From Antedon mediterranea (taxonomy: Eukaryota; Animalia; Echinodermata): 64,000 bases of DNA. The position numbers were made by a program, and so were the translations under genes. How positions within the stretch are numbered: position 1 is the first letter of the stretch; each line of letters begins with the position of its first letter. Of this stretch, positions 5,471 through 63,920 are shown one piece after another. The notes under the pieces were generated by a model. The model made no database searches. It was not told the origin of the DNA and saw only the letters and a list, made by a program, of their open reading frames with translations. The stretch is from the NCBI RefSeq assembly GCF_964355755.1, contig NC_092671.1:39566304-39630303 (forward strand), read 5' to 3'.

Positions 5471-7742
<2,272 letters not shown>

Positions 7743-7759
7743 TTCCATATATATGTTCT

Positions 7760-14431: not shown

Positions 14432-14506
14432 TATATAAGAAGTAGACATGTAATGGACGGCACTTTCGTCTTCGAACCTTCAGGTTATGCTGCATCAAAG
14501 GTATGT
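14432..14506 (+). promoter_or_regulatory. Putative amylase-1 core promoter and non-coding first exon
   Basis: TATATAAG at 14432, Inr-like gcACTTT ~30 nt downstream, AAG|GTATGT donor at 14501. The amylase ATG sits right after an acceptor (tttag|cATG), so an upstream exon is expected. Confidence 0.6.
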
Positions 14507-41511: not shown

Positions 41512-41630
41512 TATATAAAACAGAATCGTAGACTAGTTGACAGAAGTTATGATAGAACTTCTAGTTCTGTCATAGTTGAGATCAATAGTCTTCACTCACC
41601 GACGTGTTTGCAACAGTCAGCACGGTAAGT
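41512..41630 (+). promoter_or_regulatory. Core promoter and non-coding exon 1 of His-rich gene 1, with 5' hairpin
   Basis: TATATAAA at 41512; AGTTATGATAGAACTT at 41545; stem TGATAGAACT/AGTTCTGTCA; donor G|GTAAGT at 41625; acceptor ttcttcag at 42820. Confidence 0.75.
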
Positions 41631-42823
41631 TGAACAAGTATTTAATTTATTTCATTTCAATAAATATTTCAGTGTATTTAAAATAAATACCCCAGGGAAG
41701 AAGTATTTAAAAGCGATAATTAATAAATTATAGCAATCATATTTATTTGAAATTCATAGACAAATATGTATTAAAGTTTATCGTTTTGGAATAATAACCT
41801 CAAATTATGTTACCTCTCTTTATAATGATGAATGATAAAATAATATTAAACACTATGACATCCATATAGGTACAGGTATGTTATTATTTAGTCATTGCTT
41901 TAAGTACCATCTATACGAACAAATAATGAAGGTATGGGTGCAATCAGATGAAGTTTGCTATACATAGATTAGTCACAAAGTCATATATACCGATAAAACT
42001 ATTAACCATTACACTGTATTTCCAAACTTCTAGGCCTATTGAGTTTGTTACTCGTCTTTCGCAAGAATTATATTTTGTTATCTAAATAAATAACGATATT
42101 AAATCTCGTCGTAGCACGGACACCATTTGCAATTCATATTCTCTTTAGTTCGTTATGTTACTCATGTAGGCTTAGGCCTACGGTACTTATACCATTTTGT
42201 ATTCCATGAATTTTCAAATTTCTTCTCCAACATACTGATGTATTCAGACAAACATTTTAGCATAATAAATAAATACACAGGTTAATGTGTGTCTACACGA
42301 TACCTGATGGCTAGTTGATTTAAAAGTAACAAAACCATTGAAAGGGGTTTGACGTATCACAACCTTTTTTACACTGAAAGTTTTGGAAAATAAGGCAAAC
42401 AGAACCTTATACCAAAGCAAAAGTGAATCAGATCAGAGCGGACATTCGGACATTCGGACACAACATTTTAATATTATTATTAATATAATATATTAATAAT
42501 ATTATTAATATCAATGAATTACATAAACATTAATTATTTCTAATCAAACATCAAATGATAACAGCAAGCATTCGCATAAATATATCGGTATTTAATAACA
42601 GTCCTTATACCATCTTAACTTTAATATGTAGGCTATTATTGTACTGATTATTGATTATTATATTTTTATATGAGAAATGGTTCTCGAAACTCGAATTTCA
42701 GACTGTTTGTATCGTTATTTAATGCTTTGTTTATAATGTATCCGTATTTTTTAAATTATACATGAAAGTATTTATACAGTATTGTAACTTATTAATTAAT
42801 AATTGGTTTGTATTCTTCAGAAA

Positions 42824-45800
42824 ATGAAGGTGTTTCTGTTAGCCGCGCTGTTGGGGTGCGTGTTGCTCCTGCAAGTACGCGCTGAATCGCAGTCGTCTGA
42901 CCTGCAGGACGATCAAAATGAAGTCAATTCTCTTGACCTGAAGGTAAACCCAGATTTGGAATCAGCTGACACCAGTGAAGTCGACAAAGACATGTTGGCC
43001 TCATCAGGTTTAGATAACGCACAAGAAATTAGTAAAAGATGTCGGCGACGATCCTTTAGACGCCGTTACAGACGTCGATTTCGTTGCCGTAGACGACGTT
43101 ACAGACGTCGAATAATTAGACGTTCTCGACGACGATACAAAGTACGACGCCTCCGAGTCCAATATTATTGGCGCAGTGGTCGATTCTACAGACTGTGTAG
43201 ACGTGGTCGTCGTACGTATTGGCGTCGTGTAACTTTCAGATGTCGAGGTGGACGTTTCTACTGCCTATACCGACATGGACGTCGACGATATTGGCGCATA
43301 ATGCGTGCATACGTGCGTAACAGACATGTATATGTTCTTCGAGGACGTCGATATATCAGAACATCCACAGTGGTTTCCTCAAGTAGAATTGTCACAAGAA
43401 CCAGTACTGGTGGATATCTCGTTTGGCGTAACAGGCGTTTGTATTTCCGAGTTCGTTATGGGCGTCGTTGGATATGGCGTGTTGTTCGATACAGATGGAG
43501 CCATCGTCGACTATATTTCTATTGGGGAAGAAGATGGCGATTGGTAAGGTGCTACAAACGTGGGGGACGAATGTTCTTCTACCGCAATGGTCGCTACTAT
43601 ACCGGTGGCAGAAGAAGACCAGTGAACCTGTACTTCCGAGGACGACGTCTCTTCTGGACAACCGTCTACCGTGGACGAAGAACATGGCGTCCAGTTCGTT
43701 ATCGATGGATCCGTCATCGTCTATACTTCTACCCAACGTTTGGCCGTCATCGAAGATGGCGCCCTGCTCCAGTTTATTACCGCAACGGTTATATATATGT
43801 CTTCACCAATGGTCGTTACCGTCGTACTGGTACATACCACCCACTCAACCCAAGACGTATAAATATTAATCTTTACTGGCGTGGAAAAAGACTTTACTGG
43901 ACTACAATTTATCATGGACGAAGAGTATGGCGTCCCGTGCGTTACAGGTGGTCCCACCATCGTCTATATTATTACCCACTATTTGGTAGCCGTCGAAGAT
44001 GGCGTCTAGCACCGGTGTACTACCGCAATGGATATGTTTTCTTTTACCGAAATGGCCGCTATTTCAAACGAAGGTTCAGATTTCCTCAACCTCAAACAAC
44101 AGTGTTTTTGTTCTGGCGAGGCAGACGCCTATACTTCAGATGGGTATCACATGGTCGTGTTAGATGGCGAGTGGTGAATTATCGCTGGCGCAATCACCGT
44201 CTGGTGTACTACATGCCATTCGGGCCACATCGTGGCTGGCGTATTGCACCAACATATCAACGAAATGGTCACATTTATATCTACCACAACGGTCGGTATT
44301 TTATAAGTGGAGGCGGTCACCCACACGTCCCCCATAGACCAAGTCGTCCCATGTTTGTTTGGCGCGGTGGCCACCTGTACTATCGATATCGCCGTGGAAA
44401 CCGCTACTATTACCGTATTGTGACAACCAAACGATACCATGGACGGTACTTTTATTACTACGGCAACACATGGCACATGCTAACGTACTACTACATGAAT
44501 GGAGTGTCATACTACTTCCATAATGGTCACTACCTTGTCAAGCATAAAACAGTGATAAAGTATCATCATCATCATCATTATCATCACCATTATCACACAA
44601 GGTTCCATACTAAAATAGTCAAACATCATCACCATCACCATCATGTAAAAATACACAGGATACACCATAACAAATATATCCACCATAAGATAGTACACCA
44701 CCGTGTGGTAAAGCACTACCGATATAAAACAATACACCACCATCATATAAAGCATGTTCACCATCACATACATCACCGTCGTGTTGTAAACCATCTTCGT
44801 ATTAGACACCACTACATCAAACACCATAAATACTATACCCATCACCATCACCATTACCGGCACGTGCACCATCGCCATCACCATCATGTTTACAGAAATC
44901 ACGTGATAACTCGTCATATCAAACGATATCATCACCGATATATCACTCGACTTCATCATCATTATCGTCATTTCCATCACGTAGTAAACCATCATAAGTA
45001 CGTCAACCATGTGAAATATAGACACAGATACGTGAAACACCATCGACACTTTACACATCATCACCATCACTACCGCCATGTTCACCACAAGGTTCACCAC
45101 CATAGATATATAAATCATGTGCGCTACCGACACCAATATATTCGACGTCATCGACGCTTCACCCACCACCATCATCGACATTTCCACATTCACCATCGTA
45201 TACACCACCATAAATATATAAACCACGTCAGTGTACGACACGTGAACATAGTTCGTCATCGTCATCTTGTCCACAACCATCACCATTACCACCATTACCA
45301 TCACAGACACCATCACCATCGGTACATCAACCATGTTAGCACAAAACATATTTATGTAAAACATAACAGATACCTTACCCATCATCACCACCACTACCAC
45401 CATTTCCATCACAGAATACACCACCACCGGTATATCAACCACGTTATAAACCGACACAAATATATTCGACACCATGTCCACTTGACTCATCATCATCACC
45501 ATTACCATCACTACCATCACCGACACCACCACCATAAGTACGTCAACCATGTGTTGGTACGTCACAAGTACGTCAAACATAACAGATATCTGACTCACCA
45601 CCATCATAAATTCATTCACATTCATCATAGAATACATCATCACCGTTATGTCAACCATCTCCGTATACGTCATCGGTACGTGAAACACCACACGCACATC
45701 ACACTTCACCATCACCACCACTACCATATTCACCATAGGATCCATCATCATCGAATTGTCAACCATGTAATTACCCGCCATCACTACATCCGGCACCATC

Positions 45801-48800
45801 GTTACTTGACCCATCACCATCACCACTACCATCATATTCATCACCGCCTCCATCACCATCGGTACATAAACCATGTGATCACAAAACAACATTATATCAA
45901 GCATCATGTTCATATAACCCATCACCATCACCACTACCACCACATCCACCATAGATTGCACCATCACCGTACCTACACACACGTACTTACCCGCCACAGA
46001 TACATCAAGCACCACCGTTATTTCACCCATCACCATCACCATTACAAACATTACCACCACAGAATTCACCACCATCGTTACATTAACCATGTACTAACAC
46101 GCCATCGAAACCTGTACCGTCACCGACATGTGACCCACCATCACCATCATTACTACCATCATCACCACAGAATACATCACCACCGATATATCAACCACGT
46201 AATTACACGTAACATTTATATCAGACATCACAAGCATTACACTCATCACCACAACCGATTCATCCATATTCAACACCGAATCCAACACCACCGATATATA
46301 AACCATCTCCGTGTTATCTACAAATATCTCTACAAAAACCGTTACATTACACGTAATCATAAACAATACTTTAACATATACCACCGTATTAGGCATAACA
46401 AAATAATTAACCATCTTCGAATTGTTCATAGATATATAAGAACAAATGTGTACCGACATTACAACCATCATAAATACTTCCACTTGCACAAGCATTACCA
46501 TCACCACCGATACGTCAACCATGTCATAACACGTCATCGAAATATATACAGACACCGACACGTGACACACCATCACCATCACTACTACCATGTCCACCAC
46601 AGACTTCATCACCATAAATACATCAACCATATCTTGTACCGACATAAATACATAAAACACCACCGTTATCTGACATACCACCATCACCATTACGTACACG
46701 TACATCACCGTCTCCATCATCACCGTTACGTCAACCACGTGCTCACACGTCACAAGAATATATATCGTCACCGATGGGTAACTCACCACCATCACCATTA
46801 CCGACACATTCATCACCACAGACATCATCACAAATATGTTAACCATGTGATCACACGTCACCATAACGTTTACAGACATCATTACATCACGCACCACCAT
46901 CACCATTACCATCACATCCATCACCGACTCCACCATCACAAGTTTGTAAACCATGTGGTAATGCACCATCGCTATATTAAACACCATCGATATCTGACAC
47001 ACCATCACCACAAATTTATTCATATTCATCATCATATCCAACATCACCGATACGTTAACCACTTGAAAGTACGTCATCGGTATGTTAAACACCACAGATA
47101 TTTGACTCATCACCATCATAGAACAATCCATATCCACCATCGCATACATCATCACCGCACTATTAACCACTTGCTTGTAAGACACCATAATATAGTAACT
47201 CACCGCTACTTGACACACCATCACCACCACTACCGTCACATCCACCACAGAATCAATCACCATAAATACATCAACCATTTGCGAATCCGTCACAAATACC
47301 TATACAAACATCGATACTTGACGCATCACCATCATCACTACCACCACCATCACCACAGAATTCATCACCACCGTGTTATCAAACACTTAAGAATACAGCA
47401 TCGGTATATCAAGACTCACCAATACCTCACCCATCACCACCACCATTACCGCCATATTCATCACAGGATTCACCATCATCGTGTAGTGAACCATTTGCGT
47501 ATCAGACACAAATATATATACAAACATCGTCATGTGACCCACCATCATCACCACTATCACCATCACCACCACACGCACCATCATCATCGCTATGTAAACC
47601 ACCTTAAAATCAGTCACCGATACATAAGAACCAATCGGTACTTGACACATCACCATCACCACTATCACCACCATCATCACATTGTAAACCACCATCGAAT
47701 CGTTAACCACCTTCGTGTCCGACATCGATACGTGAAACACCACACATACCGTACCCATCATCACCACCATTACCATCACTACCACCACAGATTCCACCAT
47801 CACCGTTATATAAACCATGTGCGTACCAAACATGTGTATCATCGTCATCATCAATACCTAACTCATCACCATCACCACTATCACCATTACCATCATAAAC
47901 TGCATCACCACCGCTACATCAACCGTGTCATGGTGCATCATCACTACATCAGACGTAATCGCTACGTAACTCACCATCATCACCACTACCGTCACATTCA
48001 CCACCGACACCATCACCATCGATACATCAACCATATCAGAACCAAACATGTGAACGTATACCGACACCGATATCTAACCCACCACCACCATCGTACCATC
48101 CATCTGCATCACTGGCACCATCATCATCGGTACTTAAACCATATGCACGTGCGCCACAGGTACATCAAGAGGCATATCTACCGAACACGTCACCACCATC
48201 ACTACCGACATTACCACCACCATATTACCCATCATCGTACCGTGCATCATACTAAATTCCACTTGAAGACTATCTATCACCATAAATTTTTAACGCATCA
48301 CCACCATATCTTCAAGACTCTACACCATCACCATCATCATCACCGTACCATCCATCATCGACGAACCATCTACAAGTACAAATACCATCACCACTATAAA
48401 CATCATCACCACCACCACTACCACAAGCACGTGAGTTCATCGCATCATCATTTCCACATGGGATTCCATGGATCATCTTTGAACGTGTTCTTTAGCTGGC
48501 GTGGTGGACATATGTACCATAGAGTACGAATACACGGACGATACACATGGCAGATTGTCAGAACCCGTATGCGAAACCACCACATGTATTATTTCACAAA
48601 CGGTAGATGGTACATCGTTCCCAACTACACCCGTAATGGCCGCTTTTACTTCTATTTGGATGGTCGATACAGTTCCAATCCCATGCCATCCGGTGGCAGA
48701 TTTAGCATCCGATATTTCAGTACAAATGTAAGAATAATCTTCAGAGGTGGACGCATGTATTATCGCTATCCTTATGGCCGAGGCTATCGTCTACGACCCG

Positions 48801-49333
48801 TACGTTTCCGAAGAAGACACGGTCGCTTCTACTACTGGACCGGCAAAACTTGGCAATTCGTTCCTTTCTATAGAATCAACACAACTTACTTCTACTACAT
48901 AAATGGCCGATACTATCCATTCGGTGTCAGTGGTGGTAGTAGCAGCTACAGCAGCTTCAGCAGTGGAAGAATCTCTTTCCATAGACCATACGTATTCTGG
49001 AGAAGAGGTCGTTTCTACTGGAGAACAGTAAGAGGTGGTAAAACATATTGGCGTCCTCTTCGCTACAACCGTTACCGTGGTCACTACCGCTACTATTACG
49101 GACGACGATGGCATTGGGTTAATTACTACGTTAATGGAAACAGATACTACTTCTGGTTAAATAACCGTTACCATTCCGTTCCGTATAATTTCTCTCGTGG
49201 GTTCCATGGGTTCGGTAGATTTAGTCGTGTATACCGCTCATATGTTACAAGAACCGTTGGGCCAATCCACCGCCACTTCGTATCACATCGATATGGTCAC
49301 ATTAGACGATTTATTCATAGATTCCGTCGTTAA
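42824..49333 (+). CDS. Giant secreted His-rich, Arg/Tyr-rich repeat protein 1 (2169 aa), family not recognised
   Basis: Uninterrupted 6.5-kb frame. ATG at 42824 just after an acceptor; signal peptide MKVFLLAALLGCVLLLQVRA; acidic segment ending ISKR; 6+3 R/Y/W modules around a 36-aa His repeat core; aataaa at ~49442 and ~49530. Confidence 0.9.
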   Translation: MKVFLLAALLGCVLLLQVRAESQSSDLQDDQNEVNSLDLKVNPDLESADTSEVDKDMLASSGLDNAQEISKRCRRRSFRRRYRRRFRCRRRRYRRRIIRRSRRRYKVRRLRVQYYWRSGRFYRLCRRGRRTYWRRVTFRCRGGRFYCLYRHGRRRYWRIMRAYVRNRHVYVLRGRRYIRTSTVVSSSRIVTRTSTGGYLVWRNRRLYFRVRYGRRWIWRVVRYRWSHRRLYFYWGRRWRLVRCYKRGGRMFFYRNGRYYTGGRRRPVNLYFRGRRLFWTTVYRGRRTWRPVRYRWIRHRLYFYPTFGRHRRWRPAPVYYRNGYIYVFTNGRYRRTGTYHPLNPRRININLYWRGKRLYWTTIYHGRRVWRPVRYRWSHHRLYYYPLFGSRRRWRLAPVYYRNGYVFFYRNGRYFKRRFRFPQPQTTVFLFWRGRRLYFRWVSHGRVRWRVVNYRWRNHRLVYYMPFGPHRGWRIAPTYQRNGHIYIYHNGRYFISGGGHPHVPHRPSRPMFVWRGGHLYYRYRRGNRYYYRIVTTKRYHGRYFYYYGNTWHMLTYYYMNGVSYYFHNGHYLVKHKTVIKYHHHHHYHHHYHTRFHTKIVKHHHHHHHVKIHRIHHNKYIHHKIVHHRVVKHYRYKTIHHHHIKHVHHHIHHRRVVNHLRIRHHYIKHHKYYTHHHHHYRHVHHRHHHHVYRNHVITRHIKRYHHRYITRLHHHYRHFHHVVNHHKYVNHVKYRHRYVKHHRHFTHHHHHYRHVHHKVHHHRYINHVRYRHQYIRRHRRFTHHHHRHFHIHHRIHHHKYINHVSVRHVNIVRHRHLVHNHHHYHHYHHRHHHHRYINHVSTKHIYVKHNRYLTHHHHHYHHFHHRIHHHRYINHVINRHKYIRHHVHLTHHHHHYHHYHHRHHHHKYVNHVLVRHKYVKHNRYLTHHHHKFIHIHHRIHHHRYVNHLRIRHRYVKHHTHITLHHHHHYHIHHRIHHHRIVNHVITRHHYIRHHRYLTHHHHHYHHIHHRLHHHRYINHVITKQHYIKHHVHITHHHHHYHHIHHRLHHHRTYTHVLTRHRYIKHHRYFTHHHHHYKHYHHRIHHHRYINHVLTRHRNLYRHRHVTHHHHHYYHHHHRIHHHRYINHVITRNIYIRHHKHYTHHHNRFIHIQHRIQHHRYINHLRVIYKYLYKNRYITRNHKQYFNIYHRIRHNKIINHLRIVHRYIRTNVYRHYNHHKYFHLHKHYHHHRYVNHVITRHRNIYRHRHVTHHHHHYYHVHHRLHHHKYINHILYRHKYIKHHRYLTYHHHHYVHVHHRLHHHRYVNHVLTRHKNIYRHRWVTHHHHHYRHIHHHRHHHKYVNHVITRHHNVYRHHYITHHHHHYHHIHHRLHHHKFVNHVVMHHRYIKHHRYLTHHHHKFIHIHHHIQHHRYVNHLKVRHRYVKHHRYLTHHHHRTIHIHHRIHHHRTINHLLVRHHNIVTHRYLTHHHHHYRHIHHRINHHKYINHLRIRHKYLYKHRYLTHHHHHYHHHHHRIHHHRVIKHLRIQHRYIKTHQYLTHHHHHYRHIHHRIHHHRVVNHLRIRHKYIYKHRHVTHHHHHYHHHHHTHHHHRYVNHLKISHRYIRTNRYLTHHHHHYHHHHHIVNHHRIVNHLRVRHRYVKHHTYRTHHHHHYHHYHHRFHHHRYINHVRTKHVYHRHHQYLTHHHHHYHHYHHKLHHHRYINRVMVHHHYIRRNRYVTHHHHHYRHIHHRHHHHRYINHIRTKHVNVYRHRYLTHHHHRTIHLHHWHHHHRYLNHMHVRHRYIKRHIYRTRHHHHYRHYHHHITHHRTVHHTKFHLKTIYHHKFLTHHHHIFKTLHHHHHHHRTIHHRRTIYKYKYHHHYKHHHHHHYHKHVSSSHHHFHMGFHGSSLNVFFSWRGGHMYHRVRIHGRYTWQIVRTRMRNHHMYYFTNGRWYIVPNYTRNGRFYFYLDGRYSSNPMPSGGRFSIRYFSTNVRIIFRGGRMYYRYPYGRGYRLRPVRFRRRHGRFYYWTGKTWQFVPFYRINTTYFYYINGRYYPFGVSGGSSSYSSFSSGRISFHRPYVFWRRGRFYWRTVRGGKTYWRPLRYNRYRGHYRYYYGRRWHWVNYYVNGNRYYFWLNNRYHSVPYNFSRGFHGFGRFSRVYRSYVTRTVGPIHRHFVSHRYGHIRRFIHRFRR

Positions 49334-52854: not shown

Positions 52855-53375
52855 AGTATAATTAATAGAAAACTAAACTAGAGGGTACTCCGAGAGTACA
52901 AACCTCAGCCTCAGTATAATTAATAGAAAACTAAACTAGAGGGTACTCCGAGAGTACAAACCTCAGCCTTAGTATAATTAATAGAAAACTAAACTAGAGG
53001 GTACTCCGAGAGTACAAACCTCAGCCTTAGTATAATTAATAGAAAACTAAACTAGAGGGTACTCCGAGAGTACAAACCTCAGCCTTAGTATAATTAATAG
53101 AAAACTAAACTAGAGGGTACTCCGAGAGTACAAATCTCAGCCTTAGTATAATTAATAGAAAACTAAACTAGAGGGTACTCCGAGAGTACAAACCTCAGCC
53201 TTAGTATAATTAATAGAAAACTAAACTAGAGGGTACTCCGAGAGTACAAACCTCAGCCTTAGTATAATTAATAGAAAACTAAACTAGAGGGTACTCCGAG
53301 AGTACAAACCTCAGCCTTAGTATAATTAATAGAAAACTAAACTAGAGGGTACTCCGAGAGTACAAACCTCAGCCT
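52855..53375. repeat. 58-bp tandem array, 9 copies
   Basis: agtataattaatagaaaactaaactagagggtactccgagagtacaaacctcagcctt. Confidence 0.97.
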
Positions 53376-53892: not shown

Positions 53893-54042
53893 CTAGAAAA
53901 TGTATAATACCGTTGTAGTCTTACTGTTGTTGAAGCAAGTAAGCACGTTCACACTGAACCTGGATTGGTTGCCGGATAAAAAATGGCTTCTATACCGTGT
54001 ACATTAGAATCGTTCATACGTTTTGTACAAAACGAAAACTAA

Positions 54043-54192
54043 AACTCTGTCTACACTATTAAACTATTTTGACAAAAAAAAGTGTGATGTGCCCAAATAT
54101 GATAGTGATATGCCCAAATATGGTAGTGATATGATCATCATCATGTCCATATATGGGCACATCACATACAGTTTGATAGTGTAGACAGAGCT
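54043..54192. mobile_element. MITE family with TIR ctctgtctacactatcaaact; other copies at ~20620, ~25820, ~39108, ~51030
   Basis: ctctgtctacactat...tagtgtagacagag; shared core catcatcatgtccatatatgg. Confidence 0.75.
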
Positions 54193-54922
54193 TTAAAATA
54201 ACCCGGAGTTTTCATCAAATTTTCTCCAAAGTCGGGCTCAGGAACGATAATGTCAAACACCGACAATATACGTTCATTCAAATCTGATTCGATGCCTGAA
54301 ACCACTACCGTAGTAGTAAACGTAATGTAATAAAAATAACCAATTTGGAGTGTTCATCATCATCAAAAACAATGAAATGAAGTTTTAAAAAGAAATCAAC
54401 AGGTTCATTTTTATTCACGCTATAGTATGGTTATCTTCTGTAATGTACGAGTTCTTTCAAAAACTCAAACTGGTTTGAATGAGTGTAGACGAAATCTTTC
54501 TATATGACAACTGACGACACAGGAACAAGTCAATTGTGCGCATGCGGGGAAGTTGGAACATGCTCTATATTCGTCTACACAGTTTTAATTGTTTTCATAC
54601 TGTAGTCTATTGGTGGTAGGTCATCAGTTTTAATCAAGCGAAAGCTTCCTAAAACTCCGGGCAAAGTACATTACATTTTAATATTTTCAAGAAAAAAATT
54701 GAAAACAAACAACATAGACCTATCTTCATTTAGTGCATTTTATTTCGAATGCTTTTAATCGATATTGAACATTTTCCTCAAATTTATAAACAATATGATT
54801 TGACAATATCACTGGATATTTTTACTGTATTTTTCAGAATTATTACCATTTATGGCTTTTGATCTTATTCCAGCGTTGAATATATTTAGAAATGATTATT
54901 TGCTATCTAGATATTATATTCT

Positions 54923-57900
54923 TTAATAGGAATAGGATGATGAACTGGAGGAAGAGTGCCAGCTACCACCACCAGAACCACCGGAGCTGGAACTGGAATG
55001 AAAAGATGAAAATCCACCGCTTACGAAGTGTCCGCCTCCAGACACGCCGCCAGTTTGAATGTAACGTCCGTTGTGAAGGTAATTCAAACGCCCATTTTTA
55101 ATGTAACTGCGCATAAGCATCCATCTAGCGGTTCGGCCGTTTTTCCATAAGAAGTAAAAGCGACCATGACGTCTTCTATACTTGACAGGGCGCCATCTGT
55201 AACGGTGATTGCCAAACTGCAGACGGGCGTAGAAACGTCCGTGCCTCCAGTACATGGTGGCGCTTGTTCTGATCACACGTGTTCTGAATGATGAGATTCT
55301 AGCCCGATAATATCGACCATTGTGTAAGAAGTAATAGTACCCACCGCTTGTGTAGCTTCTTACTATGCTCCATCTACGACTTCTGTTACGCGCGGGCAAT
55401 GCGTACAAAATACCATTTCGTCGACGGTACGTTACTCTAATAAGGGTAGTACGCCTACCACGACGGTATTTGTAGTATAGAACATTATTTCGCATAACAT
55501 ATGGGGTGTATCGGATTCTAAACTTCATATGACGGGGATGTGTTCGATAACGGCCATGGGAAAAACTATAGTAACGGTTATTCATTCGATAAAATCTCAT
55601 CAAATGCCATCTGCGATTCCAGAGGAAGTAGTAGCGACCGTGACGTTTACGGTAGTTGACTGGTCTCCAGCTGGGTCGTCCTCTTGGTCCTCTTACAGCA
55701 TAGTAGAATTTTCCACCTCTCCAGTAAAATTGTCTTGGGTAGTTGGACTGCCTAAATATAACTTTGTTATATCGGCCATTTGACCAATAGTAGTAAACAC
55801 CTCTGCGTCTGTAAAACATAGTGAACACCCAAGTTTTACCATTCCAGTAGAACAAACGACCATGTTGTCTGCGGAATCGGACGGGTCTTAGTCGGCGTCC
55901 AAATCTGTAGTAGAGTCGGTTTCCACGCCAATAGACATGGCAAAGGCTGGGGTTAAAACGTCTCATTCGTGGCCTATATTGGGGCTGTAGATAATAACGG
56001 TTATTGAACCAGTAGTAATAGCGACCGTGGTTGTTATAGAAGTTTACAGGGCGCCAAGTGTAACGACCGTGGGATGGCCAGTAATAGTAGAATCGTCCAT
56101 GAATGCGGCGATAACGCACTGGTCGCAACATGTAACGACCACCTCGTCGGACGTAATAGTACAATCGATTATTTTTCCACATAATAAATGTGTTGCGTTG
56201 AATGTAGCCAGGGCGATATCTAACCATGTAGTGACCATTATTCCAGTAATAGTATCCACCATTGAGGTTGTAGGAAGTCACATAGTGCCAGGTGTTATTG
56301 TAAAAATAACTTAGGCGACCGTGGTGCTTTCGGTAACGAACAGTGGTCCATACGTAGCGGTTGCCCCGTCGAACACGATAGTACAAACGTCCATGTCGCC
56401 AGGAAATATTAGCTGAATAAGAGTAGGTATGGTGGTGTACATGACGGTAATGGTGGTGGTGATGGTGAAGATGATGTGTTTTGTGCACGTGTTTGGTCAC
56501 TCTTCGTACGTGATACTTGTGTTTGACGTGGTAGTGATGGTGATGACGGTGTACGATGTGTCGATGGTAAACATGCTGGTGATGGATGCGGTTCACGTGT
56601 TTGTAGACGTTTTGGTGATGGTACTTATGGTGTACTTTATAGTGGTGATGGTAATGATGGACTCGATGCCTGTGGTGCACGTGTTTGTAATGCACTATCG
56701 TGATTCGATGTGTGATTATTTTGTGGTGATGACGATGGTGCGTATGGTACACGTGATGGTGATGGTGTACGTAATGACGATGGTGTAGATGTCGGTGATG
56801 TGTAACAAGTATGTTGTGTCTTATGAGACGATGGTGGTATCTATGGTGCACGTGGTGGTAATGGTGGTGGTGATGGATGTTGTGATGGTGGTGTACATGG
56901 CGATGATGCGTTGTTAGAATATGATGATAGATGTGGCGATGGTGGAATCTATGATGAACATGGTGGTAGTGATGATAATGGTGGATGCGATGGTGATGGT
57001 GCACGTGTCGGTGGTGCGTAATTGTGATGTGGTGGTGGATGGTTCTGAGATGGTATCGGTGATGGGCGTGGTAGTAATGATGGTAATGATGTATACGGTG
57101 ATGATGGTGGATGTGACGATGATGTCTTACGTGAATGTGGTGCACAATTGTACGCAGATGGTATCTATGGTGTACGTGGTGCCGGTGGTGGTAGTGATGA
57201 ATATGATGGTGGTGATGCACATGTCGGTGGTGTGTTGTGACAATATGGTGGACAACGGTACGGTGATGGAATCGGTGGTGAGTGTGATACACGTGATGGT
57301 AATGGTGGATATGATGATGATGCTGCATGTGACGATGATGCGTTACAGTAACATGATGCAGCACGGTTCTAAGGTGATATTTATGATGTACATGGTAGTA
57401 ATGATGATAGTGGTGGATGTTGTGACGATGGTGGACATGTCGGTGATGTGTTATACGAATATGATGAAGGACTGTTTTCAAATGGTATTTGTGATGTCTG
57501 TGGTAATAATGGTGATAATGGTGGACATGATGGTGGTGATGGAGATGTCGGTGGTGTGTAACGGTCACGTGGTGATACACAGTACGTGTGTGGTACCTAT
57601 GGTGGATATGGTAATTGTGGTGGTAGTGGTGGATTCGGTGAATGTGGTGAAGATGCCTGTGATGTGTTATACGAATATGATGGTAAATGGTACGGTGATG
57701 GTATCTATGGTGGGCGTGGTAGTAGTGATGGTAGTGGTGAACGTAATGCCTGTGGTGCAGGTTTTTGTGGTGCGTAATATGAATGTGATGTACGATTGTT
57801 CGGAGATGGTATCGGTGATGAGTGTGGTAATGGTGATGGTAATGATGGATGTAATGCGTGTGGTACAGGTGTCGGTGATGAGTTATATGTATGTGATGAG

Positions 57901-60900
57901 CCACATATCGGTGGTGGTATCTGTGATGGGTATGGTAGTAGTGGTGGTAATGGTGAATGGCATGTCGATGGTGCAGATGCTTGTGGTGTACCACGTTAAT
58001 ATGGTGATAAATATGTCGGTGATGGTATCGGTGATGGGTATGATAATGGTGATGGTAATGATGGATCTGGTGGAAGTGATGGACATGTTTATGATGCAAC
58101 ACATTTATGTGGTGGTAGACGGTACGGTGGTGGTATCTATGGTGGATATGGTAGTAGTGGTGGTAATGATGGATATGGTGATAATGATGAATGTGTCTTC
58201 TGTGGATCACATTAATGTGATGTAGGACCAGACGATGATAATATCTGTGGTGAGTATGGTAATAGTGATGATAGTGATGGATATAGTGTCGATGATGTAA
58301 GTGTCGGTGATGTACTATAGTTATATAATTGTATATATTTCTGTGGTGGAATCTATGGTGAACATGGTAATGATGATGGTGGTGATGGATATAATGGCGA
58401 TGGTATCTATGTAGGTGATGGATAGTCTTGATGTGGGTAACTATATACCGAGTGATATACCTATGGTATCGATGATAGGTATGTATATAGTGGTGAATGT
58501 AATACCGATGGAAAACGTCTTTAATGTGGTTAACGGTAACATGGACATACACTATTCGTTTACGGTAATTATGGTGCACGTGGTAGTAGTGGTGGTAGTG
58601 ATGAATGTAATGCTTGTGGTATATATGACGATGGTGTGAATAAGTTATATAGTGATATACATTTCGGTGATGGTATCTATGGTGGACATGGTAATAATGG
58701 TGATAATGGTGGATGTGGTGTCGGTGGTGCAAATGACGGTGATGCACAACAGTTATATGGTGATATATGGTGCGATGGTGGTACCTGTGGTGAACATGGT
58801 AATAATGGTGGTAGTGATGGATAGCGTGACGGTGGTGGACATGCCTGTGGTGGGCAATGTGGATATGATGGTAAATGGTACGATGGATATACCGATGGTG
58901 TCGGTGGTAGTAATGATGATAATGATGGATGTAGTGACGATGGTGTAAATGACGATGGTGAATTATTTTGATATGGTGGTAGATATGGCGGTGATGGTAT
59001 TTATGGTGAACATGGTAATAGTGGTGATAATGATGAACGTAGTGGTGATGATGAAGGTGGCGATGATGTGTTATTTTAATGTGATGCCTAATATGTCTAT
59101 GGTGGTATCTGTGGTGAATATGGTAATAATGGTGATAGTGATGGTGATAATGTCTGTGGTGCAGATGACGACGATGGAGGACGTGGATATGGTGTACCAC
59201 GGTACGAAGGTGGTATCGGTGATGAACGTGGTAGTAATGATGATAGTGGTGTACATAATGCGTGTGATGTACGTGTCGGTGGTGCAGAGTGTGTATATGG
59301 TGGACTAAGAGTCGGTGATGGTATCTATGATGGACATGGTAATAATGGTGATGATGGTGTATACGGTGATGATGGTGCACGTGTTTATGGTGCACTATAC
59401 GTATATGGTGATAGAAGGTACGGTGATGATATTTATGGTGGACATGGTAGTAGTGGTGGTAGTGGTGAATACGATGGTGATGATGCACGTGTCTATGGTG
59501 GGTCACGTGGATATGATGGTAAACACGTCGATGGTGGTACCTATGGTGAATGTGATAGTAATGATGGTGGTGATGGATATGGTGATGATGGTGACGGTGA
59601 AGGTGGTGCGTTATCAAACGATGGTGATATATGATACGATGGTGGTAGCGGTGATGAGTGTGGTAATAATGATGATAGTGGTGGTGGTAATGACGATGGT
59701 GTAAGTGACGGTGATGATTTATTGTGATATGGTGTCTAATGGTATGCAGGTGGTATCTATGGTGCACATGGTGAATATGGTGATAATGATGAATAGTGTG
59801 TCGGTGGTGCACGTGCTTATGGTGATTCACACGAATATGGTGAAGGACTGTGTGAAGGTGATACCGGTGGTGAACATGATGCCGATGGTGGTAATGGTGA
59901 ATATTATGGTAATGGTGTCGGTGTCGGTAATGCGTAACATGAATATGGTGTATTATGTTACGGTGATGATACCTATTGTGAATGTGACGGTAATGGTGGT
60001 GATGGTGAATTATATGCCTATGGTATATATGCCTGTGGTGATTATAACGGAGATGATGGTACACATGACGGGTGTGGTATCGATGAGTCACGTGATAGTG
60101 ATGATGATAGTGGTGTCTTAGGTGAGTATGGTGCTTATGACGGTGTAAAGTCACGTAAACATGACGATTCTTGATAACATGATGATAGCGATGATGGGTG
60201 TGTATCAGATGCTTATATTTGTGGTGATAATGATGATGGTGAAGATGCACGTGTCGAATGCGCACCTTTGTTTTGTAGTGATGCACGTGGTGATGGTGAT
60301 GCCTATGCCTGTGTATAATATGTGTGTGCGTCAAATAATGACCATGGTTGTAATAGTAGTTGCGGCCGTTCAAATAGTAATAACGGACAATATGCCATGT
60401 TTTGTGGCCTCCGTAACCCCACCAAAAGTAGTAGCGGCCATGCACTTTTCTGTAACGGACCAGGCGCCAGGTATAGCGGTTGTTATGATACCACCGCATG
60501 TACAGACGTCCGCCACGGAATCTAAAACGAAGAGTTCCGATCGAAGGCCTAAAGTTGTAACGACCATGGTTCCAATAGTATGTGCGTCCATTGATAGTGT
60601 AATAGCGAACAATGGACCAGATATATCGGTGGCCTACGCGATGGTAGTAGTATGTGCGTCCATGATATCTTCTATATTTGACAGGACGCCAGCGGTAACT
60701 GTTTCCAACACGATAGCGTAAGTAGAGGCCATTGCTACGCCAGTAAAAATGAATCTGTCCATTTGTGCGATAGTAGGTTACACTAACGCTAGGAAGCCTT
60801 AATCTTGGGTAATATTGGTAGCGACCATTTCTGAAGATGAACATTCGTCCAAATATTCTAATATTATGAACCAAAGACCAGATGTACCGTCTTCCTACAC

Positions 60901-61513
60901 GTCTCCAGTACAAGAATCTGCCACCGGATCGTCTGAATCTCACCACTTGCCATACATATCGGCCACCTCTCCGTCGAAAGATGTACAGACGGTTGTTTTT
61001 CCACTGGAAGAATGTTTTGTATCGACGGGGACGGTAGGAGGAAGTGCGATATCTTCCATGACTCCAAAAGTACCTTCGTCCTCTAGATGTAAAGGCTCTT
61101 ACCAAAACCCATCGGTAACGGCCTCCCCAGCGCATGAAAACATAAATGCGACCACGGACTACGCGTTGTCTTTTAAGGTATCGGTTGAAGTACCGACCGC
61201 CTCTTCGCCAGCGGACATACATACGACCACCACGTCTGTAAAACCAGTAACGTACCCGGTAAATCTTTTTATAACGTCTTCTTCGTGAAGGTAGACGATA
61301 ACGTACTACCTTGGTGCGCGTATGAGTAAGTGAATACTTGTCTACGTCATCGACATTATTGGACGATTCACTCACATCTGGTCTGCTGGCGGACAGAATA
61401 TCTTTGTCGACTTTATCGACAGCATCTTCAGTTCGACTTACTGGTGCTTCGGAGAGTGAACTGTGTACTAAGACGATGCACCCAAACAGAAAAACCAACC
61501 GAATCACCGACAT
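54923..61513 (-). CDS. Giant secreted His-rich, Arg/Tyr-rich repeat protein 2 (2196 aa), paralogue of protein 1
   Basis: Signal peptide MSVIRLVFLFGCIVLVHS; acidic segment with VDKDIL; 4+6 R/Y/W modules around a 36-aa His repeat core; Gly/Ser tail; acceptor ttttgacag 9 nt before the ATG. Confidence 0.9.
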   Translation of the reverse strand: MSVIRLVFLFGCIVLVHSSLSEAPVSRTEDAVDKVDKDILSASRPDVSESSNNVDDVDKYSLTHTRTKVVRYRLPSRRRRYKKIYRVRYWFYRRGGRMYVRWRRGGRYFNRYLKRQRVVRGRIYVFMRWGGRYRWVLVRAFTSRGRRYFWSHGRYRTSSYRPRRYKTFFQWKNNRLYIFRRRGGRYVWQVVRFRRSGGRFLYWRRVGRRYIWSLVHNIRIFGRMFIFRNGRYQYYPRLRLPSVSVTYYRTNGQIHFYWRSNGLYLRYRVGNSYRWRPVKYRRYHGRTYYYHRVGHRYIWSIVRYYTINGRTYYWNHGRYNFRPSIGTLRFRFRGGRLYMRWYHNNRYTWRLVRYRKVHGRYYFWWGYGGHKTWHIVRYYYLNGRNYYYNHGHYLTHTHIIHRHRHHHHHVHHYKTKVRIRHVHLHHHHYHHKYKHLIHTHHRYHHVIKNRHVYVTLHRHKHHTHLRHHYHHHYHVTHRYHTRHVYHHLRYNHHRHIYHRHIIHHHHHYRHIHNRYHHRNIIHHIHVTHYRHRHHYHNIHHYHHRHHVHHRYHLHTVLHHIRVNHHKHVHHRHTIHHYHHIHHVHHRYHLHTIRHHITINHHRHLHHRHYHHHYHHYYHTHHRYHHRIIYHHRLITHHLHRHHHHHIHHHHHYYHIHHRYHHRRVYHHIHVTHHRHVHHHHRIHHYHHYYHVHHKYHHRTFYHHIRIVHHKHVHHHHRIHHHHHYYHVHHRYHHRLLVHHIHTLHHRHVHHTHYVHHYHHYYHVHHRYHLRTVVHHIHVLHRRHLHHRHYHHHYHHYYHIHHRYHHRHIRHHIKITHHRHLHHHHYVHHYHHYYHVHHKYHHRHIYHHIKIIHHRHLHHRHYIHHYHHYYHRHHRYIHRTIYHHIHIAHHRHVHHRHAIHHYHHYYHVHHRYHHRTIYHHITVVHHRHLHHRHHIHHYHHYYHVHHRYHHRNVYHYITYSHHRHIYHKHYIHHYHHYYHVHHNYRKRIVYVHVTVNHIKDVFHRYYIHHYIHTYHRYHRYITRYIVTHIKTIHHLHRYHRHYIHHHHHHYHVHHRFHHRNIYNYITIVHHRHLHHRHYIHHYHHYYHTHHRYYHRLVLHHINVIHRRHIHHYHHIHHYHHYYHIHHRYHHRTVYHHINVLHHKHVHHFHQIHHYHHHYHTHHRYHHRHIYHHINVVHHKHLHHRHAIHHYHHYYHTHHRYHHRYVAHHIHITHHRHLYHTHYIHHYHHHYHTHHRYHLRTIVHHIHITHHKNLHHRHYVHHYHHYYHAHHRYHHRTIYHHIRITHHRHLHHIHRIHHYHHNYHIHHRYHTRTVYHHVTVTHHRHLHHHHHVHHYHHYYHRHHKYHLKTVLHHIRITHHRHVHHRHNIHHYHHYYHVHHKYHLRTVLHHVTVTHHRHMQHHHHIHHYHHVYHTHHRFHHRTVVHHIVTTHHRHVHHHHHIHHYHHRHHVHHRYHLRTIVHHIHVRHHRHIHHHHRIHHYHHYYHAHHRYHLRTIHHHITITHHRHVHHHHRIHHYHHYHHVHHRFHHRHIYHHILTTHHRHVHHHHNIHHHHHYHHVHHRYHHRLIRHNILVTHHRHLHHRHYVHHHHHVYHTHHRHHHKIITHRITIVHYKHVHHRHRVHHYHHHYKVHHKYHHQNVYKHVNRIHHQHVYHRHIVHRHHHHYHVKHKYHVRRVTKHVHKTHHLHHHHHHYRHVHHHTYSYSANISWRHGRLYYRVRRGNRYVWTTVRYRKHHGRLSYFYNNTWHYVTSYNLNGGYYYWNNGHYMVRYRPGYIQRNTFIMWKNNRLYYYVRRGGRYMLRPVRYRRIHGRFYYYWPSHGRYTWRPVNFYNNHGRYYYWFNNRYYLQPQYRPRMRRFNPSLCHVYWRGNRLYYRFGRRLRPVRFRRQHGRLFYWNGKTWVFTMFYRRRGVYYYWSNGRYNKVIFRQSNYPRQFYWRGGKFYYAVRGPRGRPSWRPVNYRKRHGRYYFLWNRRWHLMRFYRMNNRYYSFSHGRYRTHPRHMKFRIRYTPYVMRNNVLYYKYRRGRRTTLIRVTYRRRNGILYALPARNRSRRWSIVRSYTSGGYYYFLHNGRYYRARISSFRTRVIRTSATMYWRHGRFYARLQFGNHRYRWRPVKYRRRHGRFYFLWKNGRTARWMLMRSYIKNGRLNYLHNGRYIQTGGVSGGGHFVSGGFSSFHSSSSSGGSGGGSWHSSSSSSSYSY

Positions 61514-62621
61514 GGTTCTTAACTGTCAAAAAAATTTAAAAAAATAAAATTAAATTACTGTATGTAATATTACTAAAGTTTCGACAATATACTACTATAC
61601 TGTAGGTATACTACTGTTGCTAAGGCTACTTTTATTTACTAATACTACCACACTTAAAATACCATGCGTTTTATTATTTGTCAATACTAAATGACAGTTG
61701 CAAGCTTGAAAATACATTTGGGCATAATCGCATTTTTACTATCCGGACAAATTGTTATTATATAAAAAAAATAGTTTAATAGTGCATTTCTTTAGTTGTA
61801 AATTTAGTAGTTTAGTAGTAGTTTAATCATGGATGGCGTAAATGGAGAAACAACGACTACACATCAAAGGGACGGTCAAAGGGACGGTCACATCAAAGGG
61901 ACGGTCAGTGGTATGCAATACCAAACTGCCAAACCCGAATCAAGGTAAGTAATTACTAAATATGATTGTACTCTAAATGACTAGACGTATTCCACTGAGG
62001 AAATAGGCCTGTAATAAATACAGTACCCTATATCCTATATTAATTAATTAAATAATAATGTAGTAGTATTGCAAGTAATCTAATAGCTTACTACTTATTG
62101 TTTTTATACAATATTTTTTGAACTAGAAAACACAAAGCTCTTCGAGGTTCCAAACGAGTTCTTATTATTTTTGGACAGAATTTGTTGTAATATACTGCAA
62201 TTTGGTGTGGACTATGTTCAATATACATAAATATCTTATGAAATTTAATTTGGCCGAAATATCTATACAATTGTGTATTACTGTGTATATAGACGCTAAA
62301 TAAGCATACATTATGTTTATATACGCCTGTATCTATCTTACTCTGCGTACACAAGTTCTAGTTAACGACCATTATCGCTTTGCAAACCAATCTAAACAAG
62401 ATATTTACTAAGAAATTTAAAATATTTATTTTCAAACTTGCGATTTGTTATTTTACTTTCTGTTTCCTAAATAAACTATTCCTGTCATCGTTTATAATTA
62501 CAATTCCAGTATATAATTGATGGCAAGGATCCTGCATAAAAAAGTTTACAATTATGTTTTCGCAGGACCCTTTTACATAAAAACATAAAACATAGCAATT
62601 ATAAATATTTGTTTTAGTTGA

Positions 62622-62738
62622 ACTTACCTATGTCAGATAGGAACCAGCAAGTTTGTCTCAGTTGATCTGTGTTCTGATAGAACTTAGTGGAAGTTCTATC
62701 ATAACTCCTGGTAAAATTGCTAATTGTTCATTTATATA
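62622..62738 (-). promoter_or_regulatory. Core promoter and non-coding exon 1 of His-rich gene 2, with 5' hairpin
   Basis: Minus strand TATATAAA 62738-62731; AGTTATGATAGAACTT from 62706; perfect 11-bp stem within 62675-62701; donor AG|GTAAGT at 62627. Confidence 0.75.
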
Positions 62739-62984
62739 TGACAGGGCCACTTGTTTACTTAACTTGAGTGTTGGTCTTACATTCTACGGGTAGTGTGTGG
62801 TATTAAGTGTCAAAGCAAAGAGTTCATATGCACAATTGTTTCAATAGATTTGTTTCTTGTGAAGTGATCGTTTTGATTTATATCCCCATATGTTCTTGTT
62901 AATTAATAATTATACATTTGACTTTACCACTTATATTTGGCTTTGCAAAAATTGCAAAAACGTTTCTTCAGTTCGTTTTCTGTA

Positions 62985-63116
62985 GAACTAATTAACCGAT
63001 AATAGGATATAGAACTGTTAATAGGTTATAGGACCGATAATAGGATACAGAACCGATAATAGGTTATAGAACTGATAATCGGATATAGAACCGTTAATAG
63101 GATACAGAACCGATAA
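62985..63116. repeat. ~19-bp degenerate tandem (gaaccgataataggatata)
   Basis: 6-7 visible units. Confidence 0.8.
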
Positions 63117-63799
63117 AATACACTCACTGGCTTAATACATACATAAAATACACGCGGCACAGAAGCGGTCCACATATTTTGTGAATGTTGCGTAAAACTG
63201 TTAACATTATTGATATCATACAAATGTTACTAATCCTTGTTCTACTTATTTTGAAAATAAATGGTAGATATGATCGGAAAATAATATGAATGTGAAACAC
63301 TAGGTTTATTGTCCCATCTATTAAAAAATATAAACCTGTTTTAATGTTGACATTTGAATAAATATTTCAGTAACAGCAACAACATTTATGTACAGTATTA
63401 CAACATTCAACTGGATCATTTTTATCATAAACTTATATTAAAACACTGTTACTAAAAAAGTTTGTAGAAGTAGAGGGCGCAGTGGTGATTTTTAAAGACA
63501 AATATTCTACAAATTGAAAATAAGATTAAAACTTGTACAATCAAATGTATATAGGAACAGACACGTTAATAATTACACTAACTAGCAGAGCCTGCTTCAG
63601 AGCTTTCAGAATCGACTCATGTTTCTACTTGAAAATTAATAATTAGCAAACATTTTTTTCGGATTTTGAACCAAATAAATCATTTAAAAATATGATATCT
63701 AGAGTATACAAGAGCCTAATTGATGGTACCTTGTTGACTTGTCTCTTACCAGCATATTTGGATATGTGTACCACTTGAGGTATACAAGATTACGGGCCT

Positions 63800-63920
63800 T
63801 ATATAAATGACAGACCGTTGAAAGCTGGTACAAGTTTTGTTAGAACTTGGTTGTTCTAGCTTACTACAGTGAGGTAACAGCGTATTTCATAAACCGTCAA
63901 CCGGACATAAGCAGGTAAGA
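63800..63920 (+). promoter_or_regulatory. Third copy of the promoter/first-exon cassette; predicted CDS lies beyond the window
   Basis: TATATAAA at 63800; AGTTTTGTTAGAACTT at 63833; stem GTTAGAAC/GTTCTAGC; donor CAG|GTAAGA at 63915. Confidence 0.65.

Follow-up and report, generated by a model that had tools for sequence, protein, structure and literature searches.

Three long-diverged paralogues of Antedon mediterranea keep one short, predicted hairpin-forming sequence in their first exon

Three long-diverged paralogues (genes A, B and C) in a stretch of 64,000 nucleotides of DNA from the feather star Antedon mediterranea, hereafter the window, keep one short sequence in their first exon that is predicted to form a hairpin. 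In line with this origin, one amylase matches an A. mediterranea protein at 339/339 residues. The three promoters show the same order of parts: a motif at about -84, a TATA box, a 16-nt motif, an arm complementary to it and a splice donor about 80 nt further on. The features are listed below in window coordinates. Open frames, TATA boxes, the upstream motifs and intron 1 of gene B were read from the sequence, and the upstream motifs were compared with the GCM consensus (PMC4701085).

41457..41465, plus strand: putative GCM-like site upstream of gene A, about -85
41512..41519, plus strand: TATA box of gene A
41542..41624, plus strand: non-coding exon 1 of gene A (start predicted; 3′ end from the observed splice)
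41545..41577, plus strand: predicted hairpin of gene A (5′ arm 41545-41559, loop 41560-41562, 3′ arm 41563-41577)
41625..42820, plus strand: intron 1 of gene A, 1,196 nt, GT..AG (joined in run X1)
42824..49333, plus strand: open frame of gene A, 2,169 aa
54923..61513, minus strand: open frame of gene B, 2,196 aa
61518..62627, minus strand: intron 1 of gene B (acceptor 61523 or 61518; junction absent from reads)
62628..62709, minus strand: non-coding exon 1 of gene B (start predicted at 62709, TATA spacing 29)
62671..62706, minus strand: predicted hairpin of gene B (5′ arm 62706-62691, loop 62690-62686, 3′ arm 62685-62671)
62731..62738, minus strand: TATA box of gene B
62784..62792, minus strand: putative GCM-like site upstream of gene B, about -83
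63747..63755, plus strand: putative GCM-like site upstream of gene C, about -83
63800..63807, plus strand: TATA box of gene C
63830..63914, plus strand: non-coding exon 1 of gene C (start predicted at 63830)
63833..63865, plus strand: predicted hairpin of gene C (core of 8 bp, 63839-63846 paired to 63853-63860; loop of 6 nt; lower stem weak)

The 16-nt motif, AGTT(A/T)TG(A/T)TAGAACTT, has exact matches at 41545(+), 62706(-) and 63833(+). As the sequence-only reading of this DNA had claimed, its first A lies 33, 32 and 33 nt (A, B, C) from the first T of TATATAAA, and each copy is closed by a complementary arm with a different loop. The distance from this A to the GT donor gives exon lengths of 80, 79 and 82 nt, within the 79-82 nt reported earlier. 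The window contains 19 TATATAAA sites, and the motif is present at three of them, those of genes A-C. Likewise, AGAAC-N(3-14)-GTTCT occurs three times in the 64 kb, each time within one of the three hairpins. The transcription starts had been placed at ~41545, ~62706 and ~63833, which probably overshoots by 3 nt in the downstream direction: the predicted starts are 41542, 62709 and 63830, that of gene A from the pyrimidine-purine rule and a TATA spacing of 30. The A of AGTT is thus probably +4, not +1. The predicted starts of genes B and C, a divergent pair, are 1,121 bp apart, and gene C extends beyond the end of the window.

The leader exons of genes A and C are present in spliced contigs of run X1, which is likely RNA. 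Intron 1 of gene A is spliced out in this run and unjoined in runs X2 and X3. The donor of gene C is used, as an X1 contig departs from the window there and continues into a B-like signal-peptide start. For gene B, no exon 1-2 junction was found in the reads and no X1 contig spans exon 1. The main ATG is placed at leader position 87, in exon 2 and about 50 nt past the stem; in genes A and C it lies 3-4 nt inside this exon. X1 contigs start at 41557, inside the hairpin of gene A, and at or after 63848 in gene C; because contigs cannot show starts, these ends were not taken as start-site evidence.

The 5′ arm is identical between genes A and B (16/16) and agrees with gene C at 14/16 positions. 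In the coding alignment of A and B, 49 of 161 four-fold and 259 of 533 two-fold sites are equal, which indicates that silent sites are saturated. Since the 5′ arm is nevertheless kept while the loops differ, the arm is under selection and not leftover identity. Loops that vary in both length and sequence do not resemble a conversion tract. The claim of a family-specific element in the 5′ leader therefore stands, as a selected sequence that the three paralogues carry in their first exon, which is spliced and non-coding. The flanks had been described as unalignable, and their ungapped identity is indeed at chance (23-31/100), but TACC(A/C)G(C/T)A is common to all three at -85, -83 and -83 (A, B, C). 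Random triplets scored as high as this upstream motif in 7 of 3,000 (width 8) and 31 of 3,000 cases (width 10). GCM proteins have an ATGCGGG-like octamer as consensus (PMC4701085); octamer positions 2, 3, 6 and 7 are all kept in A and C, and position 3 is lost in B.

A high-copy repeat, named beforehand as a finding that would overturn the element, is contradicted by the flat DNA-contig depth and by the three copies in the window, although short diverged copies elsewhere would escape this analysis. The summed depth over the elements equals that of the flanks (about 300), whereas for true repeats in introns it rises to 1,840 and 110,574. A covariance-model search of the window returned only the three copies on which the model was trained and the reverse strands of these, with the next score at <=12 bits. 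The TATA-plus-hairpin pattern, being that of an animal element, was expected to be absent from metagenome and viral contigs and had 0 matches in them.

The predicted stem of gene A has a 12-bp core (one G·U) and is extendable to 15 pairs (12 Watson-Crick and 3 G·U). Gene B has a perfect stem of 11 bp, with 14/16 positions paired in register and one mismatch, and gene C a stem of 8 bp (one G·U) with a 3x2 loop. The loops are UCU (A, 3 nt), CCACU (B, 5 nt) and UUGGUU (C, 6 nt). When the 5′ 16 nt were fixed and the following 29 nt were taken from shuffled local non-coding DNA, an equally long stem arose in 12 (A), 59 (B) and 3,576 (C) of 200,000 draws. The first 40 nt fold with z-scores of -3.5, -6.1 and -2.2 (A, B, C), and 0, 0 and 9 of 200 shuffles folded as well; over its whole exon, gene C does not fold unusually (27/200 shuffles). 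The sense strand folds better than the antisense strand in A and C, and both are equal in B. All stems are AU-rich, with folding energies of -11 to -15 kcal/mol at 37 °C and of -18 to -21 kcal/mol at 17 °C, and the stem of gene C is weak, with a pair probability within its exon of 0.46 at 37 °C and 0.89 at 17 °C. Pre-miRNAs have longer stems than these hairpins, and this assignment was rejected because of the short stem.

Among 45 in-register cells, 33 are Watson-Crick pairs, five G·U, none A·C and seven other mismatches. Under simulated strand-symmetric decay, a G·U excess of >=5 was reached in 3.2% and of >=4 in 7.6% of 100,000 runs, in a test devised post hoc. With a simulated p of 0.03–0.08, the five G·U against no A·C thus lean towards an RNA hairpin. 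Pairing is retained by one change on both sides, from A-U to U·G, and by three on one side only; covariation among these three sequences from one genome does not reach significance (shuffle controls: 167 and 265 of 500). Overall, an RNA hairpin is preferred, short of proof. Of the two options offered earlier, an RNA element or a palindromic factor site, the G·U bias favours the former, and a factor dimer of fixed spacing does not agree with arms that are 3 (A), 7 (B) and 4 nt (C) apart.

The reading that we prefer, at somewhat below an even chance, is a selected leader element that is likely a cap-proximal hairpin and whose likely reader is a sequence-specific factor that sets translation start or cap retention. 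The 5′ arm is conserved at the level of single letters, also at bases left without a partner in some copies, which indicates that something reads its sequence, either as RNA or as DNA just past the start. Changes in the 3′ arm mostly keep RNA pairing, which points to pairing as its job. As the stem is AU-rich and weak, it would alone be at most a mild throttle, and strong control would need a bound protein. The predicted cap would lie 4-10 nt before the hairpin, and the factor would recognise the stem sequence and tune translation or cap fate of the A, B and C mRNAs. Control by hairpins near the cap, and by protein-bound stems in that position, is established (PMC7672427, PMC3368165, PMC2673433). 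Against this reading counts that IRP and LARP6, the known 5′-stem binders, recognise loops or bulges, and those parts are unconserved here.

The strongest rival, which we consider unlikely but a real contender, is an element acting as DNA only: two inverted ~GNYAGAAC copies just past the start would be bound by a transcription or core-promoter factor, together with the TATA box and the -84 site, and the hairpin would be a by-product. The other conserved promoter parts are DNA elements, the stem is conserved in sequence and not in shape alone, its position relative to the TATA box is fixed within 1 nt, and the absence of significant covariation also agrees with this. However, the variable arm spacing is poor for a dimer, the complementarity in A and B runs past the shared core with different letters, and the departures from pairing are five G·U against no A·C. 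Particular factors were considered as well. A heat-shock element has the consensus GAAnnTTC, which does not occur in -400..+90 of A, B or C, and the arms show no such register. A steroid-receptor-type IR3 palindrome consists of two AGAACA-like halves 3 nt apart, a spacing found in A only, and was rejected, as was a GATA site in the 5′ arm, which is present in A and B and lost in C. The suggested metal responsiveness found no support: the MTF-1 consensus TGCRCNC (MRE) is absent from -400..+90 of A and B, and a single copy lies at -349 of C.

Improbable in our estimation is an RNA element of shape only, without a dedicated reader, which would act in Dcp2-like decapping or in promoter-proximal pausing while core-promoter needs hold the 5′ arm. 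The element for Dcp2 binding and decapping (DBDE) is a sequence-independent stem of >7 bp, <10 nt from the cap, with a free loop (PMC2673433). The stems described here (12, 11 and 8 bp, free loops of 3, 5 and 6 nt) resemble it in length and loop; their onset is predicted at +4 to +10, roughly 10 nt or less from the cap, and they would close with polymerase at about +45 to +50. Yet the core stem of gene C begins at ~+10, at the described limit, and quick decapping has no obvious need in structural-protein mRNAs. Moreover, the DBDE is not family-specific and tolerates flipped or swapped stems, whereas the stems here retain their sequence, with 14/16 letters of the 5′ arm invariant at saturated silent divergence, although this is an indirect test.

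Very unlikely is a stem that serves to mask the upstream AUG of its 5′ arm. This AUG opens uORFs of 8 codons in A and 14 codons in B, which begin inside the stem and terminate out of exon 1, but gene C keeps the stem despite a UUG instead. In any case, ribosomes usually pass over an AUG that is 8 nt from the cap. Neutral inheritance, gene conversion or a transposon end has the least chance of all and is largely refuted: the genes are tandem paralogues, but their silent sites are saturated, loops and flanks are unrelated, the element depth is that of the flanks and not of repeats, and the window holds no fourth copy.

The likely purpose of a sequence-read cap-proximal hairpin would be to match and pace the synthesis of 280-kDa, polycationic, aggregation-prone secretory proteins, co-produced in one cell type that the shared upstream site would specify. 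The products of A and B are His/Arg/Tyr-rich proteins of ~2,200 residues, 280 kDa and polycationic charge, and are predicted to be secreted. The protein of gene A comprises a signal-peptide-like N-terminus, an acidic pro-like stretch, ~65-aa Arg/Tyr/Trp modules and central 36-aa His repeats (26.6% His, pI 11.6). The protein of gene B has the same architecture (30% His, pI 11.1) and 41.5% identity to A. Earlier it was proposed that the element co-regulates chains, but there is no sign here that the products assemble together. Neither product is a collagen, a Pfam search of both gave no family and an atlas search no usable match. None of the candidates scored in homologue searches with residues 1700-2150 of gene B (519 candidates) and with a module alignment (3,773 candidates). 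The sole relative found is XP_071965392.1, an uncharacterized Antedon mediterranea protein (E 5.7e-07; hhalign 96.5%). It shares the signal peptide, pro-like stretch, basic Cys/Arg run and Arg/Tyr/Trp module, but is a 342-aa protein with two modules and without His repeats, encoded on another sequence (22.3 Mb vs 40.9 Mb). A second match was dropped as an unrelated-looking tandem-repeat translation. The ~65-aa module was modelled as all-beta (pLDDT 92); it has no fold match at E ≤ 0.001, the weak matches being choline-binding-type repeats, and a best Z of 3.8. The model of the His repeat is unreliable (pLDDT 60, pTM 0.22). A, B and C form an undescribed protein family.

The composition-based refractive increment of the A and B proteins is 0.209-0.210 ml/g, a rough value from residue constants that give 0.1955 ± 0.0009 for 121 amylases. 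The highest increment quoted for a crystallin is 0.209 (PMC4047532), and the near-maximal value fits an optical role without showing one. The content and role of crinoid saccules are open (bioRxiv 10.1101/2024.08.14.607903), and the A and B proteins are candidates for these refractile bodies. A far-reaching version, which we regard as a long shot, is that A, B and C encode the refractile saccule matrix and make up a small regulon. A GCM-type site would turn them on in a single secretory cell type, and at the cap an RNA-binding protein that reads the stem sequence would coordinate how the giant His/Tyr/Arg proteins are translated; this would be an independent invertebrate counterpart of the collagen stem-loop (5′SL) and LARP6, for a protein optic or a granule that binds metal. 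The three shared promoter parts provide a handle on this 280-kDa His-rich family of predicted secreted proteins: the motif could locate further members genome-wide, and probes could test the saccule content.

Known systems offer partial parallels. In the TCT core promoter and the 5′TOP, one start sequence is possibly read as both DNA and RNA across a gene family. The start-proximal sequence of A, B and C may likewise be read as both, but it differs by a TATA box and a paired stem in place of a pyrimidine tract. The iron-responsive element (IRE; PMC4184891, PMC3368165) is similarly a hairpin of about 30 nt near the cap. The proposed analogy fails, as there is neither a CAGUGN loop nor an unpaired C five pairs below it, no iron-related gene is present here, and Rfam at gathering score gave only two tRNA matches in the window. 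The collagen 5′SL is bound by LARP6 and proposed to coordinate the translation of paralogous mRNAs for secreted structural proteins; it has two stems on either side of a conserved bulge, the part recognised by LARP6, encloses the start codon and is confined to vertebrate collagen I/III mRNAs (PMC4615758). The likeness lies in a stem-loop common to the 5′ UTRs of paralogous mRNAs for (predicted) secreted proteins. The analogy drawn earlier breaks down in the defining features, since there is no shared bulge (the stem of A is continuous), the loop is free, the stem sequence is conserved and the start codon lies in exon 2, outside the stem. Family-specific 5′ leader structures common to structural-protein paralogues come mainly from vertebrate collagens so far. 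If our preferred reading is true, the Antedon hairpin would extend this to a second case, from an echinoderm, where the letters of the stem and not of the loop are conserved, which would point to another mode of leader reading.

Genes A, B and C, members of a protein family specific to crinoids, share at their 5′ ends a promoter-leader module that is real, under selection and undescribed; it is present as three copies in one genome, with predicted starts. Direct reading of the window confirmed the 16-nt motif beginning AGTT(A/T)TG(A/T), which forms the 5′ arm of a predicted hairpin, at 41545(+), 62706(-) and 63833(+). The TATA-to-motif distances of 33, 32 and 33 nt given in the sequence-only reading were obtained again, and the first exons, for which a donor 79-82 nt from the motif's A had been described, measure 80, 79 and 82 nt in A, B and C. 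The motif is present at three of the 19 TATATAAA sites of the window, and the core AGAAC-N(3-14)-GTTCT occurs three times in 64 kb, exclusively at these elements. A covariance model built from the three copies, a search that had been proposed, was run on the window and located no fourth copy there. Core stems comprise 12 bp (A), 11 bp (B) and 8 bp (C), and in-register pairing extends over 15 positions in A and 14/16 in B. With the 5′ arm fixed and the local DNA shuffled, equal stems arose in 12 (A), 59 (B) and 3,576 (C) of 200,000 draws. C is the weakest copy: 9/200 shuffles folded equally well over 40 nt and 27/200 over the whole exon.

The window derives from an Antedon feather star, since one of its amylases is identical to XP_071941612.1 of Antedon mediterranea in 339/339 residues. 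It harbors the following features:

2346-4415, + strand: fusion of a retroelement integrase-like frame with an OTU-like protease domain (Pfam: OTU at E 1.2e-10, rve under its cut-off)
5555-5626 and 5826-5897, - strand: tRNA matches 270 bp apart (56 and 42 bits), possibly SINE heads
6412-7764 and 31027-31551, - strand: near-identical pair of reverse transcriptase and GIY-YIG fragments (Pfam scores below cut-off), by their architecture presumably Penelope-like
8839-11839 (132 bp), 14464-15456 (55 bp), 22718-23535 (17 bp) and 52855-53375 (58 bp): homogeneous satellite arrays
16685-18351 and 34849-37109, + strand: tandem pair of alpha-amylase genes, the first matching XP_071941612.1 over 339 aa and lacking the C-terminal extension of the second
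20214-22197, - strand: Antistasin-domain gene that includes a signal-peptide-like exon and, at 20881-21838, a trinucleotide-repeat stretch rich in Ser/Thr
38114-38174: inverted repeat with perfect 16-bp arms around a 29-nt spacer, located 3.4 kb upstream of gene A
42824-49333, + strand: open frame of gene A (27-30% His, range for A and B)
54923-61513, - strand: open frame of gene B (27-30% His, range for A and B)

Genes B and C form a divergent pair, A and B a convergent one. Each of A and B is one open frame, of 2,169 and 2,196 residues respectively. Both encode a signal-peptide-like start and a short acidic stretch, and their central block of His repeats (36-aa period, self-identity 58-66%) is flanked on either side by Arg/Tyr/Trp-rich modules of about 65 residues. 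Acidic residues are almost absent beyond position 70. The proteins have no Pfam match, and the module, which is predicted to be all-beta, has neither a Pfam nor a clear fold match. Their exact sequences were absent from a collection of 15 billion sequences. A module profile retrieved two matches at E ≤ 0.001 from 1.84 billion representatives, of which XP_071965392.1, an uncharacterized protein of A. mediterranea, is a true relative; the second was a repeat translation and was dropped. The giant A and B proteins themselves are undescribed.

A contig of run X1, taken as RNA by guess, joins 41557-41624 to 42821 over a 1,196-nt GT..AG intron of gene A. This joint is absent from the DNA runs X2 and X3, of which X2 covers the stretch in one piece. 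As the contig is only 1,341 nt long, shorter than the 6.5-kb frame, the full frame is not established as one transcript. Another X1 contig follows the exon of gene C up to 63914 and then, from 4 bases past the junction, encodes a signal-peptide start resembling that of B, which makes C a likely third paralogue. The first exons of A and C are real; no exon 1 junction of B was seen in the X1 contigs. A second donor-like site, GAG|GTAACA at 63874 within exon 1 of C, is passed by the contig reaching 63914. On gene B (61300-61494) an X1 contig departs from the window by 9 substitutions within about 195 nt and lacks 3 nt there, compared with 1 difference in 848 on gene A. Two of the five listed changes alter a residue, and this contig may come from a fourth paralogue or from a divergent allele.

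In each of the three genes a purine precedes the A of AGTT, and 3 nt upstream of that A there is a pyrimidine-purine step, at 30, 29 and 30 nt from the TATA box's first T. Such spacing and initiators are favoured in the mammalian data presented in PMC1779604. Starts are predicted from the sequence at 41542 (A), 62709 (B) and 63830 (C), with a second candidate for C at 63832. The leaders would measure 86 nt (A), 86 or 91 nt (B) and 89 nt (C), with stem starts at +4 to +10.

The flanks had been described as unalignable by eye, which holds for overall upstream identity (23-31/100) but not for TACC(A/C)G(C/T)A, found in the same orientation at -85, -83 and -83 in A, B and C by an unbiased scan of -300 to -36. 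Scores as high occurred in 7/3,000 random triplets and 6/3,000 shuffles at width 8, and in 31/3,000 and 28/3,000 at width 10. A shared element is supported. Its reverse resembles the GCM site ATGCGGG, of which positions 2, 3, 6 and 7, described as indispensable in PMC4701085, are kept in A and C, while B lacks position 3; a GCM site is a lead suggested by this resemblance.

The 45 in-register cells of the stems contain 33 Watson-Crick pairs, 5 G·U pairs on the transcribed strand, no A·C and 7 other mismatches. In a strand-symmetric decay simulation, devised post hoc with the data already seen, a G·U excess of at least 5 arose in 3.2% of runs, and of at least 4, the case of one jointly inherited G·U, in 7.6%. 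One pair shows a two-sided pairing-preserving change and three show one-sided changes. The sense strand folds better than the antisense in A (-13.8/-9.3) and C (-10.8/-5.5), and equally in B. Selection on RNA pairing is probable. Inverted sites acting in DNA only are a weaker, rather unlikely explanation: the G·U bias speaks against them, and arm spacings of 3, 7 and 4 nt are unlike a dimer site, which also disfavours the palindromic factor site proposed earlier. However, covariation among the three sequences failed its shuffle controls (167/500 and 265/500), and the 5′ arm keeps its letters where they are unpaired in some copies, which requires a sequence reader that could equally act on DNA.

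Stem stability is calculated at -11 to -15 kcal/mol for 37 °C; at 17 °C, the temperature used for culture in PMC11336682, it is -18 to -21. PMC7672427 reports that in mammalian cells hairpin effects are steep from about -40 to -20 kcal/mol and stronger near the cap; the review PMC3368165 puts a cap-near block at -30 and describes cap-near IRE-IRP complexes blocking 40S binding. By these thresholds a bare stem is at most a mild throttle. We tentatively favour a cap-proximal stem bound by a sequence-reading factor, which might set translation initiation or cap fate, in either direction, of mRNAs for huge polycationic secreted proteins. Action by shape only, on decapping or pausing, is improbable; the hairpin shape is closest to the Dcp2 element, which however works independently of sequence. 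That the stem serves to mask the upstream AUG present in A and B is very unlikely.

The A and B proteins are 41.5% identical, and their silent sites agree at chance level (49/161 four-fold, 259/533 two-fold). Their introns share short AT-rich matches only. The 5′ arm, in contrast, is identical in 16/16 positions between A and B and in 14/16 with C, with probabilities of about 5e-9 and 4e-6 at the four-fold rate. Pairing is indeed mostly kept while loops vary, and because the loops differ in length and letters a conversion tract is not the explanation; a neutral origin is hardly credible. Nor did a high-copy repeat appear in window copies or in DNA-contig depth, although contig depth does not measure how many copies exist, and copies that are short and diverged would escape detection. 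Summed depth over the elements equals that of the flanks, save an excess at B of one contig over 21 letters (A's copy, by our arithmetic), whereas genuine repeats in the vicinity have depths of 1,840 and 110,574. The latter depth, against about 260, marks a very high-copy repeat in intron 1 of gene B (62485-62592), 40 nt from the donor.

A and B are candidate saccule proteins. Antedon saccules are described in bioRxiv 10.1101/2024.08.14.607903, which cites Holland 1967 and Mallefet 2023, as highly refractive spheres of unknown function, a lens role being among the proposals; PMC9793003 reports non-specific probe staining and autofluorescence. The refractive increment of A and B, roughly estimated from residue constants, is 0.209-0.210 ml/g versus 0.1955 ± 0.0009 for 121 amylases; it is close to 0.209, the top value for crystallins in PMC4047532 (background in PMC11118217). 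Egg glue, larval cement or metal-hardened cuticle also fit the composition. No description of the proteins or the element was found in the literature covered; subscription papers, older monographs and supplements, outside this scope, may bear on saccule content.

The suggested metal-responsive control was not borne out: the MRE consensus used in the promoter scan is absent near A and B and occurs once at -349 of C. The His richness gives it no support, being a property of the proteins and not of the leader. The likeness to an IRE also fails, as the hairpins lack the CAGUGN loop and C bulge described in PMC4184891, and Rfam returned two tRNA matches only in the window. Unlike the collagen 5′SL presented in PMC4615758, they contain neither its conserved bulge nor the main start codon, and the products are not collagen; by analogy the leader element may still work in a similar way. 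The best fit in shape is the Dcp2 element of PMC2673433.
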